Origin: a virus
Lineage: Duplodnaviria > Heunggongvirae > Uroviricota > Caudoviricetes
Virus record (IMG/VR): IMGVR_UViG_2718218135_000005
Direction: 5' to 3' (one strand)
Length of the DNA stretch: 39,236 nt
Shown here: one piece after another, positions 23,088 to 28,379 of the stretch
How the letters are laid out: every line of letters starts with the position of its first letter
How positions within the stretch are numbered: position 1 is the stretch's first letter
The notes under the pieces: generated by a model
What the model was told of the DNA's origin: nothing
The model's input: only the letters and a program-made list of their open reading frames with translations
Database searches by the model: none
Translations under genes and position numbers: made by a program

Positions 23088-23501
23088 TCACTTCAACCGT
23101 TCACGGGCCGTCTTCGCCTTATGACACGGCCAGCACAGACTCTGCAGATTACAGTCGGCATCAGTGCCGCCATGCGCTTTAGGGATGATGTGGTCAACAG
23201 TTTTCGCCTCACGCACCACACCAGCACGCAGACATAACTGACACAGGCCTTTGTCACGCTTCAGGACACGCGCGCGGATACAGTCCCACTTCGAACCGTA
23301 GCCGCGCTGATGACGGGACTGGCCTGGCTTGTATTGCTTCCAGCCTTCGCTTTTGTGGCTTTCGCAATAGCCTGACGAGTCAGTGGTGGTATGGGGGCAG
23401 CCGCGAACGCGGCAGGCTTTTGGGGTTCGTGGTGGCATTGCATAATCCTCTTGGATGGTTCGCGTGCGATACGTGGCATCCTTCTCAGAATCGAATCGCA
23501 C
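23088..23501 (-). CDS. HNH endonuclease (packaging-associated)
   Basis: 137-aa product with CQLCLRAG...VDHIIPKAHGGTDADCNLQSLCWPCH, a canonical HNH/zinc motif; sits upstream of terS as in HK97-like phages. Confidence 0.8.
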   Translation of the reverse strand: MRFDSEKDATYRTRTIQEDYAMPPRTPKACRVRGCPHTTTDSSGYCESHKSEGWKQYKPGQSRHQRGYGSKWDCIRARVLKRDKGLCQLCLRAGVVREAKTVDHIIPKAHGGTDADCNLQSLCWPCHKAKTARERLK

Positions 23502-23588
23502 TCCACTCCGGTTTTGCCATAAACGATCTTTTATGCTTCGCTGGATGTAGTTGATAGTTGTTGAAACTCAATGAACAGGAGTTCACAA

Positions 23589-23924
23589 ATGAATAGTTAT
23601 GAATGGGAATGGCTTTTAAACAAAGATGACACCCTATGCTTTTTCCCCGTAGGCCATTCTGTAGAAGGTAATTACAAAATTCACTTTGAGTTGAGCGGTA
23701 GTTGTAACCTTAGAGTCTCAGATGCTGAATGGCATGGTAAACCTGTACTGCTGTTCGAATACTTCGATGAAGATGATGACCGCCCTGCAATAATCGAAAT
23801 ATTAGAAACAACCACTACAACTGTGGAGGCGATGATCGCACATCTGAATAGTATCGATAGTATTTACCATGAACCGATTTACAAAGCGGTTTACGAGTGG
23901 GCCGTAAAGTTTTTCTATCGATGA
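23589..23924 (+). CDS. hypothetical small acidic protein (moron gene 1)
   Basis: ATG at 23589 preceded by caggag; AT-rich by eye; antisense to the late operon. Confidence 0.5.
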   Translation: MNSYEWEWLLNKDDTLCFFPVGHSVEGNYKIHFELSGSCNLRVSDAEWHGKPVLLFEYFDEDDDRPAIIEILETTTTTVEAMIAHLNSIDSIYHEPIYKAVYEWAVKFFYR

Positions 23925-24024
23925 TACTTCGTTATCTTGCTGGCATTCACAATACCTTTACATATTAATGACATGCCAGCACAATACTGTCACTTACAAC
24001 CGTTCGGATTACCTAGAGAAAAGT

Positions 24025-24594
24025 ATGATTCAGGATTTACTGATCGAAGCAATTAGTCACGATAGGATGCATAAAAAGTTAAATGAACTGAATTGCTACT
24101 TCTACAATCGCAAACATGAAACTCAAATACGTGATGAGTTAGTTGTTATTCTCAATCAAATCAGCACACTAACTGCTTTAAGTGAGCATCCAAAACTCGG
24201 TATCGGCGCTGTTGACATATCACTTTATAACCAGTCGATATTAACGTCTGAACATAATGGCAATGTTGCAACCATCGAGATCAAACACCATTACCCAAAG
24301 GATTTACTTTATCGGCAAGTTCAAGAAGACATCATTTCCGATATTTCAAGAGTAATAGTTTCACCAACTACACATTTTATCCATATAATCCAGCAAAGAA
24401 CTAGGATTAATACTCCTTCTTTTGGCCAAGTGAAATTCCTTGAACGTGATGCAAGTGATATCAGCACTTATGTGCAATGCCTTGAAGAGCTAAGTTCCTT
24501 CCCCAGTATCTTTCATAAAAAAAGTATATGTATTGAGGTACTTGGTGAAATTATGTCGACATATACCTTTAACGTATATTCATTTGACAACTGA
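24025..24594 (+). CDS. hypothetical protein with PD-(D/E)xK-like nuclease signature (moron gene 2)
   Basis: ATG at 24025; product has GIGAVDISLY then ~20 residues later VATIEIKHH, a D ... E-x-K arrangement; AT-rich by eye. Confidence 0.5.
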   Translation: MIQDLLIEAISHDRMHKKLNELNCYFYNRKHETQIRDELVVILNQISTLTALSEHPKLGIGAVDISLYNQSILTSEHNGNVATIEIKHHYPKDLLYRQVQEDIISDISRVIVSPTTHFIHIIQQRTRINTPSFGQVKFLERDASDISTYVQCLEELSSFPSIFHKKSICIEVLGEIMSTYTFNVYSFDN

Positions 24595-24615: not shown

Positions 24616-24873
24616 TTAATGGTTAGTTCTCTCTGCATCTATTTTACGAATATCAGCTTTATCCCGATTGCAGTTAGCCAGTGCAGACAACAGACTCACA
24701 TTCAGCTCCAGGCTGGCACCATAAGTCAGAGGATTTGGTATGAACGGTACAGGTGTTTCAGAAGTCAGACTAGTCGGTAATGTTGTAGCCGGAGTGCTCA
24801 CGTAAACTGTCCGCGTACTTCCGCAACCGCTCAGCAGCGGCAGCAGGCACAAGGCGTGCAGCACAACCATCAT
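24616..24873 (-). CDS. o-spanin (Rz1-like lipoprotein), overlapping the Rz gene out of frame
   Basis: MMVVLHALCLLPLLSGC lipobox and signal peptide, Pro/Thr-rich mature part. Confidence 0.5.
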   Translation of the reverse strand: MMVVLHALCLLPLLSGCGSTRTVYVSTPATTLPTSLTSETPVPFIPNPLTYGASLELNVSLLSALANCNRDKADIRKIDAERTNH

Positions 24874-25150
24874 CCGCAACAGCCACTTTGATATCTTTCT
24901 GGGTTCTCTGTGACTCCAGTGCGATCTGCTGTTTTGCATGCTGGTTAACCTCTATAACTGTATTGACGATTTGCAGTAATTGCAGGACGTTACGGGTAAT
25001 GGCTGTTGCAGATTCAGCATTTTGTACAGCCTCATCAGCACGTTTCTTTTCGTGCTGATATTTGCTGTAGTAGTGGTTGGCAGACCAGATGAAAGAACCG
25101 ATGACAGTAAAGAAGAATGCAGCGATAACCAGCTTATAGCTCAACTTCAT
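24770..25150 (-). CDS. i-spanin (Rz-like)
   Basis: 126-aa product with N-terminal TM helix and coiled-coil periplasmic part; directly after endolysin. Confidence 0.6.
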   Translation of the reverse strand: MKLSYKLVIAAFFFTVIGSFIWSANHYYSKYQHEKKRADEAVQNAESATAITRNVLQLLQIVNTVIEVNQHAKQQIALESQRTQKDIKVAVADDGCAARLVPAAAAERLRKYADSLREHSGYNITD

Positions 25151-25610
25151 TTACCACCCCACCAGCCTCTTTAAATCGGGCAATCAGGTCACCGATTTTA
25201 TGTTCATACTGACCGTAACCTGCACCAGGTAACGACGCCCAGATATTGCTGCAACGGTCGATTGCCTGACGAATATTGCCGCGGTCAATCATCGGTAAAG
25301 CGCCACGCTCTTTAATCTGCTGCAGAGCTACAGCGTCCTGGCTTTCTGGAGAAAAATCTTTCAGGCCAAGCTGTTTACGGTAAGCATCCCACCAGCGTGA
25401 AAGAAGCTGGTAACGTCCGGCGGCTGTTGATTTGAGTTTGGGGTTTAGCGTGACAAGTTTGCGAGGGTGATCGGAGTAATCAGTGAACAGTTCACCACCA
25501 ACAATAACATCATAACCGTGGTTACGTGTCGGTTGTCGCCCGTTATCCGTTCCTTCTGACCAGGCCACCATATCAAGGAAAGCTTTACGCTGAGGATTTA
25601 GTTCCTGCAT
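25134..25610 (-). CDS. endolysin, lambda R-like lytic transglycosylase
   Basis: Near-identity over long stretches to lambda R as recalled (NQRKAFLDMLAWSEGTDNGRQ...TRNHGYDVIVGGELFTDYSDHPRKLVTLNPKLKST). Confidence 0.9.
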   Translation of the reverse strand: MQELNPQRKAFLDMVAWSEGTDNGRQPTRNHGYDVIVGGELFTDYSDHPRKLVTLNPKLKSTAAGRYQLLSRWWDAYRKQLGLKDFSPESQDAVALQQIKERGALPMIDRGNIRQAIDRCSNIWASLPGAGYGQYEHKIGDLIARFKEAGGVVNEVEL

Positions 25611-25613
25611 AAA

Positions 25614-25940
25614 TTACTCCTTCGAGCTACCAAACTTGTTACCGATTACTCTCATTGCCGCACCACGAATAGCATCGACCCCGATCAGCCCCACCCCACC
25701 ACCAATAGCAACAGAAAGTGATTTAGGCCATCCGACATACTCAAGCGCGGATGCAAAGGTCAGTGTCAGAGCGCCACAGAGCAAAATCTCGAGCGTTTTT
25801 CGCTTCCAGCCGCCACCGCCACCAAAATAGGCAATACGTAAACCAGCCATAACGATCGACATAATTACTGCGCCCAGCGGTGTATCTCCACGCCACCAGC
25901 TCTGGACCAACTCCAGCCATGTATTTGGGTTATGAGGCAT
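25614..25940 (-). CDS. putative holin
   Basis: 108-aa product with hydrophobic helices and charged C-terminus, immediately upstream of endolysin. Confidence 0.55.
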   Translation of the reverse strand: MPHNPNTWLELVQSWWRGDTPLGAVIMSIVMAGLRIAYFGGGGGWKRKTLEILLCGALTLTFASALEYVGWPKSLSVAIGGGVGLIGVDAIRGAAMRVIGNKFGSSKE

Positions 25941-26092
25941 TTGTAGTTATCTCTCACCTCGCTGATACAGCAGGTGCAAATTGAGGAAACATCATGTACC
26001 GCAAATCAGAAGCGGAAACGTCAAAGAAGCCGAACCAATGGATAACTGCGGAATAGGCAAGGACCAACGAATCCCCAGCCCCAGAAACGACA

Positions 26093-26114
26093 AAACCCGC
26101 TCGACGGCGGGTTT
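26093..26114 (-). terminator. terminator-like hairpin (candidate tR' of the late operon)
   Basis: aaacccgc-tcgacg-gcgggttt, an 8-bp stem; on the minus strand it is followed by ttttgtcgttt. Confidence 0.35.
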
Positions 26115-26206
26115 AAGCTGTGTGGCGAAGTAACCACTCTTAACACATTACATGATAAAATGCGGACCGCGTTAGTAATATTTTTCTCATATATTGGGTT
26201 CACTAC

Positions 26207-26953
26207 ATGCGACATAATTTTTCTAAAGACACTATAAAAAAATTAGCAGAGCGGGCAGCATTCATTTGTTCAAACCCTTCATGCCCTAGATTGACCATTG
26301 GCCCATCAATTGATGGCAATAAATCAATCAAGACAGGAGTTGCTGCTCACATATGTGCAGCATCTCCTGATGGCCCACGCTATGACATGTCACAATCAGA
26401 AACAGAAAGGAAGTCAATTAACAATGGCATATGGCTGTGTGCTACTTGTTCTGTATTAATAGATAAGAATCAGGGGCTAGACTATCCGGCACCTGTATTA
26501 AGAAAATGGAAAAAAGATCATGAAAGCCTTATAAGCTCCTGTCTTGAAGGTTCGATTAATATTACCTTCGATGCTTTGAAATATATTCAACAGCATGATG
26601 AAAGAAATCTGGCAAAAAAGATTATAAATGAATTGGATGATAAAGGGGCTTTGTTCGTAGAATATCATCTTGAAAACCCCTGTTTTGTTGCCGAATCACT
26701 CAAAGAGTTAAGAACATGTTTGACCTCTTTGCTTTCTCAAATCCCAGATGAATCACCTCTATTTATCGTTTGCAAGTCAATTCGAGAAGCATGCCGTTAT
26801 TATATGAACAACACTTCTAAAGACGCAGGGATTAAAGAGTTAGAATTTTCGTTGGGAGCTGTCAGAAAAATCGTAGGTATCAACGTTAAAAGAATATCAG
26901 AAACCTACGGGGTTAAACCTAGCCCACAATTATCTACCATAATGCCAGATTAA
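26207..26953 (+). CDS. hypothetical HNH-like zinc-finger protein with uncharacterised C-terminal domain
   Basis: CSNPSCPRL ... AAHICAASPDGPRY ... NNGIWLCATCSVLIDKN resembles an HNH motif; AT-rich by eye; antisense between Q and holin. Confidence 0.5.
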   Translation: MRHNFSKDTIKKLAERAAFICSNPSCPRLTIGPSIDGNKSIKTGVAAHICAASPDGPRYDMSQSETERKSINNGIWLCATCSVLIDKNQGLDYPAPVLRKWKKDHESLISSCLEGSINITFDALKYIQQHDERNLAKKIINELDDKGALFVEYHLENPCFVAESLKELRTCLTSLLSQIPDESPLFIVCKSIREACRYYMNNTSKDAGIKELEFSLGAVRKIVGINVKRISETYGVKPSPQLSTIMPD

Positions 26954-27003
26954 ATCTGTTACGCAGCAACAAAGTTAAACTCTATGTTGCTGCCTTAATT
27001 TTA

Positions 27004-27381
27004 TTACTCCATTTCTAAACGAATATCCAGCATCGAGAGACAACCATCTATAAACCCTTCAGCCAACTGTATCTCTATACGTATCAATTTCTCATCTTTT
27101 TTGTATGCTTTTGCTATCTTCCTTTTCGAGATGCCATACAGGTAATGAGCCACAATCAGAGAGTGCTCATACGGTTTTCTCTTCTTAAGAAGAGCAAGAC
27201 AACCTTCAATAATTAATGCATCACTATCTGAACAAGCCTGACGTGTTTTGCTTGTATAGGGAAGAAGCCCTTTAAACCCAGCAGCTATAGGAGAATAGTC
27301 TACTCCAGAACTATCACTCGCCGCCCATGCTCCCCAACGATCCAGAACCATCTGAATATCACGCATCAACTTTCTCCACAA
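27004..27381 (-). CDS. late-gene antiterminator Q-like protein
   Basis: 125-aa product directly upstream of the lysis cassette; family resemblance from memory. Confidence 0.6.
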   Translation of the reverse strand: MWRKLMRDIQMVLDRWGAWAASDSSGVDYSPIAAGFKGLLPYTSKTRQACSDSDALIIEGCLALLKKRKPYEHSLIVAHYLYGISKRKIAKAYKKDEKLIRIEIQLAEGFIDGCLSMLDIRLEME

Positions 27382-27383
27382 AA

Positions 27384-28379
27384 TCAGGCCAGCACGCCAG
27401 TTGCCAGCGCACGATCGATAAAACGAAATATCAGCTCCAGTTGGGAGCCATACTTCTCTTCAAATGCCACGGTATCTGCATGCAGCTCGTCGTGATGCTT
27501 TCTGCACAAAGGCAACACAAAGAGGTCATGCGTTTTTGTCCCCATTCCGCCCTGACCGTGACCTATCAGGTGGTGAGGATCATCAGCAGACTTTCCACAA
27601 CATGCGCACGGCTGCGTCTTAACCCAGCGCGTGTACTTTTCGTTAACCCAGCGGCGACGTTTGGGGCGTAACATAAAAGACTCCGGCGACTCCGGATCCA
27701 CTTTCAGCGCCAGCACCTTTTTCGCTTTATCCTGGATGATGCTGGTGGCAGGAACCGAAGGAACAAGGTCACTTTCCCGGGTGACAGACGGCACAACAGG
27801 CTTCGGTAATCTCAGTGCCTTACGGGCTGCACTTTCCGGTAAGGCATCCGCCAGGTCATTACGAACCAGCCACCAGCATAGTTCCGGCATTGTCACAACG
27901 TGACTATCATCAAAACCGAGATCCCGACGCACAACAGACAACATCCAGCGGGCACAGTTATCCGTTGCCATTGATTCCAGCCGTTCCGTGAACTGATCGC
28001 GCAGCTGGTTATCGCAGTGCCAGCACAGACGGATTGCGCCCGGCGCGTGTCGCATTGTGGTCATATTCTCGCTGTGCCAGTCGGAATGAGGCCACTGGCA
28101 GCCTTTTTCACGAAGTAACCAGCTTTCAAGACATTCCACTCCACCAGCACGACGGATCACTGCCTCATTGCGGAACACGGCCCGAACGGCAGGATCATCC
28201 GCCAGCGGTTGTGATGCTGCCGGAACGGCACCACTGGCGAAAGATGAATAACGTTCCGGCTCAGGCTCCAGCAGGACACGCCCCTGCATAAACAAGGGCA
28301 TCAGCTCTGAACCTGGCCTGAACAATACGATCCCCATACGCGGGGCAATTTCAGGGGTCAGTAGTGCTCTCACGGTCAC
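27384..28379 (-). CDS. DUF968-family protein with C-terminal HNH-like motif (YdfU-like)
   Basis: C-terminal CACCGKSADDPHHLIGHGQGG...LPLCRKHHDELH. Confidence 0.6.
   Translation of the reverse strand: MTVRALLTPEIAPRMGIVLFRPGSELMPLFMQGRVLLEPEPERYSSFASGAVPAASQPLADDPAVRAVFRNEAVIRRAGGVECLESWLLREKGCQWPHSDWHSENMTTMRHAPGAIRLCWHCDNQLRDQFTERLESMATDNCARWMLSVVRRDLGFDDSHVVTMPELCWWLVRNDLADALPESAARKALRLPKPVVPSVTRESDLVPSVPATSIIQDKAKKVLALKVDPESPESFMLRPKRRRWVNEKYTRWVKTQPCACCGKSADDPHHLIGHGQGGMGTKTHDLFVLPLCRKHHDELHADTVAFEEKYGSQLELIFRFIDRALATGVLA

Follow-up and report, generated by a model that had tools for sequence, protein, structure and literature searches.

An antisense HNH-DUF6650 gene in the Q-holin slot of a prophage: a candidate single-gene immune nuclease

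The interval between Q and the lysis genes is the site of stx in Shiga-toxin phages. Which kind of gene fills this interval in the tailed-phage genome IMGVR_UViG_2718218135_000005 (IMG/VR; 39,236 nucleotides, here called the window) is the question addressed below. The span 25941-27003 of the window runs exactly from the start of the holin to the stop of Q. All phage genes near it are located on the minus strand, and an open reading frame (ORF) for a 248-amino-acid (aa) protein lies antisense to them, with a GC content of 0.36-0.39 compared with 0.48-0.58 in the flanking genes. A sequence-only reading of the window had singled out this AT-rich plus-strand gene, and the ORF list, the GC profile and the Pfam assignments of both flanks agree with that description. 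The gene, here termed the cargo gene, encodes an N-terminal HNH domain of the type found in Cap5 and a C-terminal DUF6650 domain. With slightly better than even confidence, we consider it a prophage-borne, single-gene anti-phage immune nuclease in which the HNH domain would be the effector and DUF6650 the regulatory part. The gene, its domains and its two neighbours are located as follows.

26207..26953 (stop codon included), plus strand: cargo coding sequence (CDS) for the 248-aa HNH-DUF6650 protein, with an ATG start, from the ORF list and homologues
26207..26551, plus strand: HNH endonuclease domain, Cap5-type, residues 1-115, with predicted Zn ligands C21, C26, C78 and C81 and predicted catalytic residues H48, N73 and D86
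26552..26950, plus strand: DUF6650 (PF20355) domain, residues 116-248, an all-helical bundle with conserved E156, R169, C196, R197, M200, N201, R220 and K221
27004..27381, minus strand: Q antiterminator (PF06530, E 6.6e-52), the constant neighbour, adjoining the cargo gene in loci L004-L007, L174 and L185-L193
25614..25940, minus strand: lambda-family holin (PF05106, E 5.7e-25; Pfam and PHROG), the variable neighbour

The two domains of the cargo protein

The cargo gene is a real gene and no chance ORF, because its product has 335 homologues (best E 1e-156), nearly all of which are full length at about 250 aa, its ratio of nonsynonymous to synonymous substitution (dN/dS) is low and its AlphaFold2 (AF2) model is confident (pLDDT 88.9, pTM 0.86). 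Compared with an 83%-identical allele, dN/dS is 0.089 overall, 0.081 for residues 1-115 and 0.097 for residues 116-248. Both domains are under purifying selection. Copies that are 99.9-100% identical to the cargo gene at the DNA level are annotated with the product WP_001406331.1.

An HNH-like motif had been noticed in the N-terminus by the sequence-only reading, and its residues can now be placed: C21-x4-C26, A-A-H48-I and N72-N73-G-I-W-L-C78-A-T-C81. All 53 family members compared share C21, C26, C78, C81, H48, N73, D86 and N88 without exception. Among 50 proteins that have only the HNH domain in common with the cargo protein, the positions equivalent to the four Cys residues, H48, N73 and D86 are likewise invariant or nearly so. 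In the AF2 model, two strands (residues 44-48 and 74-78) and a helix (residues 79-87) form the beta-beta-alpha core, so the failure of structure prediction to return an HNH fold, which would have spoken against the motif, did not occur. In the 7rwk alignment, H48 falls on the His of Cap5's conserved AHI motif, and the register of the match to 8fm1 (PsCap5) puts it at His56, the proposed general base of PsCap5 (PMC12141522). Judged from alignment and model, H48, N73 and D86 are predicted to provide the catalytic His, Asn and Asp of an HNH (beta-beta-alpha-metal) nuclease, and the two Cys pairs are predicted to form a structural zinc site. The catalytic residues are intact in the window copy.

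Profiles of defence HNH proteins match the same region. PADLOC returns PDC-M68A (7.5e-27), the CBASS 'Effector endonuclease' (4.8e-21) and SAVED_HNH (4e-19), with weaker matches that include Shedu SduA; all of these matches span only residue 1 to about 115-130. Among BFVD proteins, phage HNHs for homing and packaging come no closer to the cargo protein than E >0.3, whereas the Cap5 match is strong. The N-terminal HNH domain belongs to the Cap5 clade. In other genomes, the same HNH module (about 50% identity) forms the N-terminus of proteins of 220-1349 aa, where it is joined to TPR repeats, NB-ARC/STAND NTPases, AAA_21 or regions that resemble PDC-S50, AriA, Old and mad3. Partners so varied are what one sees with an immune effector module that is exchanged between proteins. 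The module is also present, at 50-52% identity over residues 2-109, in P2-type phage proteins annotated as lysogenic conversion, in Yersinia phage vB_YenM_31.17 and in the P2-EC46 'putative lysogenic conversion protein' (AJ512680.1 2584-2913).

The C-terminal domain had been described as unrecognised, which holds for a direct hmmscan but not for the profile route, by which the domain is assigned to DUF6650. The profile of the C-terminal domain alone was searched against 1.84 billion representatives and gave 1171 matches at E <=1e-3 and 471 at E <=1e-10. HNH is absent from 124 of the top 146 matches, which are mostly 140-180 aa long. All 68 of the solo relatives that were scanned match PF20355 (best E 1.1e-25), and hhalign aligns the solo family with the cargo C-terminal domain over 129 columns with a probability of 100% (E 1.3e-38). 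Because the profile matches all carry PF20355 and hhalign reaches 100%, the C-terminal domain is DUF6650. Further support comes from the homologues of the whole protein: a precomputed PF20355.5 match is present in all 120 homologues among the matches listed, one family member (L037) passes the PF20355 threshold (33.9 bits vs a cut-off of 27), and five further homologues give sub-threshold PF20355 matches in a consistent register. Some copies are named 'DUF6650 family protein' by PGAP. AF2 models helices across residues 121-243, five of them between residues 121 and 234, and the domain is taken to be a four-helix bundle. Structure searches of the PDB with it yielded nothing more specific than four-helix bundles of a generic kind (designed proteins, cytochrome b562 and CheA HPt among them), and a BFVD search returned nothing significant.

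Canonical solo DUF6650 proteins (about 150-175 aa) share with the cargo C-terminus the motifs LEDkG/LEDRR, E..P..V..S..E(I/L)R..LT, ACR.(Y/F)(M/L)N and LG..RK. In contrast to the cargo protein, they have no HNH and start with a conserved GxSxPxFGxSW motif, which is missing from the HNH fusion. At 13 solo loci, ten of them distinct, the upstream genes are variable and no TIR was found nearby. In several loci (L232, L233, L234, L240 and L176), the solo gene was observed directly downstream of a co-oriented variable gene, the product of which has multiple transmembrane (TM) helices in L233 and L234. These arrangements suggest that the partners of DUF6650 are exchangeable and may be either fused to it or encoded separately; ten distinct loci are too few for a conclusion.

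The cargo slot and the distribution of the gene

The borders of the inserted DNA and the regulatory elements around the cargo gene are the following.

26186-26998, plus strand: mobile cargo cassette of 813 bp (upstream region, CDS and hairpin), marked by loss of homology to SfIV and cdtI
26963-26993, plus strand: stem-loop 10 nt past the stop codon and ahead of CUUAAUUUUA (predicted RNA folding energy -15.2 kcal/mol, z -4.06)
26092..26185, minus strand: conserved 95-bp element at the slot border, common to SfIV, cdtI and an EssD-type prophage (L174)
26114..26093, minus strand: intrinsic terminator within the 95-bp element, AAACCCGCCGTCGAGCGGGTTT with a T-rich tail, from the terminator scan

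In blastn comparisons, homology to SfIV stops at 26184, and homology to cdtI spans 26092-26185 and restarts at 26999. Because homology to both breaks there, the cassette is delimited as 26186-26998. The same slot holds other antisense cargo in both relatives. In cdtI, it is occupied by orf53 and orf54 (L175 1095-2483), the second of which matches DUF6731 (E 1.7e-10). In SfIV, it is occupied by gp48 and gp49 (L001 2405-3827), neither of which has a Pfam or PADLOC match. The site just downstream of a PF06530-type Q is thus a cargo slot, bounded by the 3´ end of Q and the 95-bp element, and the cargo in the window, SfIV and cdtI is antisense to the late genes. The suggestion that the Q-S interval is a hotspot for cargo is borne out by these replacements.

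None of 200 shuffled sequences is as stable as the stem-loop at 26963-26993, which is likely where transcription of the cargo gene terminates. The loop of this hairpin is too long for the consensus terminator scan, which did not report it. The terminator at 26114..26093 lies between cargo and holin and is common to prophages with different lysis cassettes. The Q-dependent late promoter/terminator module probably includes the 95-bp element, whose terminator would then be tR'-like. If so, the cargo would be located between Q and the late promoter and therefore outside the late transcript.

Among 5426 complete E. coli genomes, 24 carry the cargo gene with a DNA identity of at least 99.9%. The same allele is found beside a lambda S-type lysis cassette in the window and beside an EssD type in L174, and the Q type is constant in the inspected loci. 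Three diverged alleles, with identities of 83% (L191), 60% (P0007, L004-L007, with Phage_holin_8) and 56% (Buttiauxella, L193, with EssD), are likewise antisense and adjacent to Q, so that conservation at the Q position extends over alleles of 100, 83, 60 and 56%. An allele of 35% identity is located near a lysozyme gene. No isolated phage in INPHARED carries the cargo gene, and IMG/VR holds 17 full-length relatives. Full-length relatives also occur in Proteobacteria, Bacteroidota, Cyanobacteria, Firmicutes, Acidobacteriota and Planctomycetota. Two copies are disrupted: an IS3-family insertion interrupts the one in NZ_CP053787.1, and a frameshift in L192 (4001-4746) splits another into ORFs of 150 and 106 aa.

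The cargo gene is a stand-alone gene, as the earlier reading had supposed, and has no conserved partner. Five non-phage loci with Pfam-annotated neighbours show varied contexts (insertion sequence elements, HEPN/AbiV, AAA_21-RloB and metabolic genes), and no TIR is adjacent to the gene in any of these five. When the two ORFs closest to the gene on either side were clustered by BLAST across 29 non-phage loci, no neighbour family was shared except one transposase pair. In a Pfam scan of 103 neighbours from the 29 loci, only transposase/integrase, HEPN and AAA families recur, with two to three members each, and no TIR or CD-NTase family has two or more members. Two hidden Markov models (HMMs) of the type VI ThsB-TIR gave no match at E <=0.01 in about 110 HNH-bearing loci or in the whole window.

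Proposed function and competing explanations

The proposed mechanism has two parts. The Cap5-type, zinc-stabilised HNH would act as the effector DNase, and the DUF6650 bundle would serve in regulation, sensing or oligomerisation. Expression would take place in the lysogen, from a separate AT-rich 813-bp cassette that includes a hairpin terminator of its own. If it behaves like Cap5 and the STAND-type proteins in which this HNH is also found, the nuclease would stay inactive until infection by a second phage yields a cue. DUF6650 would sense this cue, probably via a change in oligomeric state, and the HNH would then cut DNA and halt the infection, as abortive infection or exclusion. Several observations count in favour of this reading: the gene is rare and patchy (24/5426 genomes), the cassette is swapped precisely, the slot holds other antisense cargo, and the neighbours elsewhere include transposases, integrases, HEPN, AbiV and RloB-type genes. 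The protein has also been predicted by others. In the DefensePredictor supplement (PMC13092281), WP_001406331.1 is listed as a 'Predicted novel defense gene' with a mean log-odds of 8.58, and the entry names a type II restriction endonuclease HNH as a partial homologue, with 35% coverage. No other paper was found to mention the WP_001406331 accession. The combination of HNH and DUF6650 is undescribed in the literature searched; its parts and logic are familiar. The idea of a single-gene abortive-infection or exclusion factor, first put forward by the sequence-only reading, therefore keeps its standing as a candidate on the grounds of the HNH, the stand-alone status, the slot and the prediction; the defence role itself is what we infer.

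Known defence systems resemble the cargo protein in part. Cap5, the SAVED-HNH effector of CBASS (PDB 7RWK, 7RWM, 8FMF and 9DIH), shares its HNH type. Unlike Cap5, the cargo protein has a 130-aa helical bundle as its C-terminus and lacks SAVED, and all Cap5-type profile and structure matches end at residue ~115-130. The cargo gene also lacks a CD-NTase partner and is prophage cargo between Q and the holin, outside any CBASS operon. The cargo protein is therefore not a Cap5, since it has neither a SAVED domain nor a CD-NTase partner. The best PADLOC match, the candidate PDC-M68A, has a profile of similar length (253 positions). PDC-M68 is not mentioned in the literature searched.

The DUF6650 label also leads to type VI Thoeris. 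A 2025 preprint describes this system as a TIR protein with a DUF6650-annotated effector, ThsG, which responds specifically to 2'cADPR, a messenger of the cyclic ADP-ribose (cADPR) type, and reports such systems in E. coli strains S1 and ACN001. ThsG is modelled in the preprint as a hexameric tube with basic pockets. The tested ThsG proteins were recovered via the published TIR sequences as L095:3513-4157 (TM type) and L181:3598-4110 (Bacillus type), and these two form one family (hhalign 99.95%). Like the cargo protein, ThsG carries the Pfam label DUF6650, is small and helical and occurs in an anti-phage context. However, ThsG is located beside a TIR gene, with a TM helix or with no extra domain, whereas the cargo protein has an HNH and no TIR. 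Between ThsG and canonical DUF6650, only a short N-terminal G-x-SW-x-P motif is common, and the HNH fusion lacks it. By hmmscan, no PF20355.3 match was obtained for tested ThsG (L095:3513-4157, L181:3598-4110 and L184:3589-4062). ThsG and canonical PF20355 proteins may be related only very distantly. The cargo protein does not count as a Thoeris component, as it lacks a nearby TIR and shows no detectable homology to ThsG, and 2'cADPR sensing is not transferred to it because the DUF6650 label is a remote, HHpred-level link.

A third comparison is DS-27 'SMEK' (WP_087896215.1), an experimentally tested single-gene defence of E. coli whose C-terminus is assigned to DUF6650 by HHpred in PMC13092281. 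DS-27 resembles the cargo protein in being a single gene with an N-terminal module (SMEK_N) and a DUF6650-assigned C-terminus. The N-terminal domain differs from the HNH of the cargo protein. The SMEK protein has no PF20355.3 match by hmmscan, and a search for sequences from which to make a profile of its C-terminus gave only 6 close relatives.

A number of results weigh against an immune role for the cargo gene or against the links that suggest it. The promoter scan found no consensus sigma-70 promoter in 25850-27100, so expression in the lysogen is an assumption; two candidates seen by eye, a TG-extended -10 (TGATAAAAT, 26153-26161, plus strand) and TATCAT (about 26152-26157, minus strand), are not relied on. 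Since two copies are disrupted, by IS3 and by a frameshift, the gene is dispensable and may be costly. The domain assignments are indirect for the window protein itself: direct hmmscan with PF20355.3 gives no match, and direct Pfam and NCBIfam scans return nothing beyond HNH_2 at E 0.086 and noise. The alignment to PDC-M68A is limited to profile positions 1-130 of 253, the HNH half, and PDC-M68 is a multi-gene candidate only. ThsG and the cargo C-terminal domain are aligned by hhalign with a probability of 0.3-1.6% (local, global and low-mact modes), and hmmsearch gives E >=0.028 against a tiny database. SMEK fares no better, with a best BLASTP E of 4.8, an hhalign probability of 0.1% (family profile vs the single SMEK sequence) and a C-terminal HMM E of 0.79. 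Finally, no experimental test of WP_001406331.1 was found in the literature searched, including the accessible part of the DefensePredictor supplement.

Other explanations of the same evidence were weighed. Prophage-encoded HNH enzymes of type IV exist, as exemplified by McrA of prophage e14, and the cargo protein could be a direct DNA-sensing, type IV-like restriction nuclease whose helical domain reads foreign DNA and whose HNH cuts it, with no signalling and no suicide. The single gene without a methyltransferase partner, the conserved basic patch on the helical domain and the 35%-coverage homology to a type II restriction endonuclease HNH, as given in the DefensePredictor table, are compatible with this. 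However, the HNH is nearest to sensor-controlled effectors (Cap5 and STAND/TPR fusions), and ScoMcrA-type proteins reach only E >1 with Foldseek. The C-terminus has a generic four-helix fold without a match to known DNA-reader domains, and canonical DUF6650 is mostly a nuclease-free protein of 150-175 aa, which is an ill fit to a dedicated DNA reader. We regard a type IV-like enzyme as unlikely. Quite unlikely, in our view, is a non-defence accessory, for example one that degrades host DNA or otherwise helps the prophage through lytic growth, or a passenger in decay. The low dN/dS of both domains (~0.09) and the invariance of the catalytic residues indicate a maintained function; a gene that is antisense, has its own terminator and occurs in 0.4% of genomes is a poor candidate for a core lytic role, and a terminase-associated HNH is already present in the prophage at 23088-23501. 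These points are set against the two disrupted copies and the lack of a clear promoter, both of which fit an accessory or a passenger.

It is very unlikely that the gene encodes an orphan signal-activated effector, in which DUF6650 binds a cADPR-type messenger (2'cADPR) made in trans by a TIR protein of the host or of a rival and switches the HNH on, so that the prophage eavesdrops. The 2025 preprint links DUF6650-annotated effectors to 2'cADPR, with systems in E. coli S1 and ACN001, the C-terminal domain has invariant basic residues (R169, R220 and K221), and the layout of HNH plus ligand sensor parallels Cap5. Yet tested ThsG shows no detectable similarity to the cargo C-terminal domain (<=1.6%), the motif common to ThsG and canonical DUF6650 is missing from the HNH fusion, and TIR is absent from the matches in ~110 HNH loci and the 39-kb window and from the families with at least two members among the 103 neighbours. 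We give the least credence to a free-standing homing endonuclease, a selfish gene that would spread by copying into the position after Q in related phages and bring the host no benefit. An HNH gene that is present or absent in an intergenic slot of otherwise near-identical phages, with four diverged alleles at the same Q-adjacent site, is what such an element might leave behind. However, full-length homologues are found in unrelated, non-phage chromosomal contexts of six phyla with no common flanks, and the phage homing and packaging HNHs of BFVD match only at E >0.3, compared with a strong Cap5 match. In addition, SfIV and cdtI carry unrelated, non-nuclease cargo in the same slot, and the gene runs antisense and has a terminator of its own.

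Other genes of the window and wider meaning

The remaining genes around the slot belong to the minus strand.

25134-25610, minus strand: lysozyme
24770-25150, minus strand: Rz
27384-28379, minus strand: DUF968 protein

The C-terminus of the DUF968 protein gives a sub-threshold HNHc_6 match (E 1e-5, 25.7 bits vs a cut-off of 26.6). A 137-aa HNH is encoded beside the terminase genes (window 23088-23501, minus strand). Between this gene and Rz/Rz1, a further AT-rich antisense pair was observed on the plus strand at 23571-23924 (117 aa, phrog_14397) and 23968-24594 (208 aa, phrog_12494), with a GC content of ~0.36-0.40. The pair, which has no significant Pfam, NCBIfam or PADLOC match and occurs as a full block in 72 of 5426 E. 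coli genomes, is possibly a further moron or defence candidate.

The slot between Q and the lysis genes also swaps discrete antisense cassettes, one of which encodes a likely immune nuclease, and this helps to chart prophage-borne defence. The HNH-DUF6650 protein occurs in at least six phyla, and the DUF6650 domain comprises >1100 sequence clusters at 50% identity. The name DUF6650 should not be used to transfer function, because tested ThsG is not detectably related to canonical PF20355. If the cargo protein were an orphan receptor, the prophage would heed TIR/NADase signals of its host or of a rival and kill the cell or the incoming DNA, and DUF6650 would be a widespread sensor placed on interchangeable effectors (HNH, SMEK, TM helices or a separate upstream gene). 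Because the HNH output can be assayed, the cargo protein could be a convenient handle on what DUF6650 senses.

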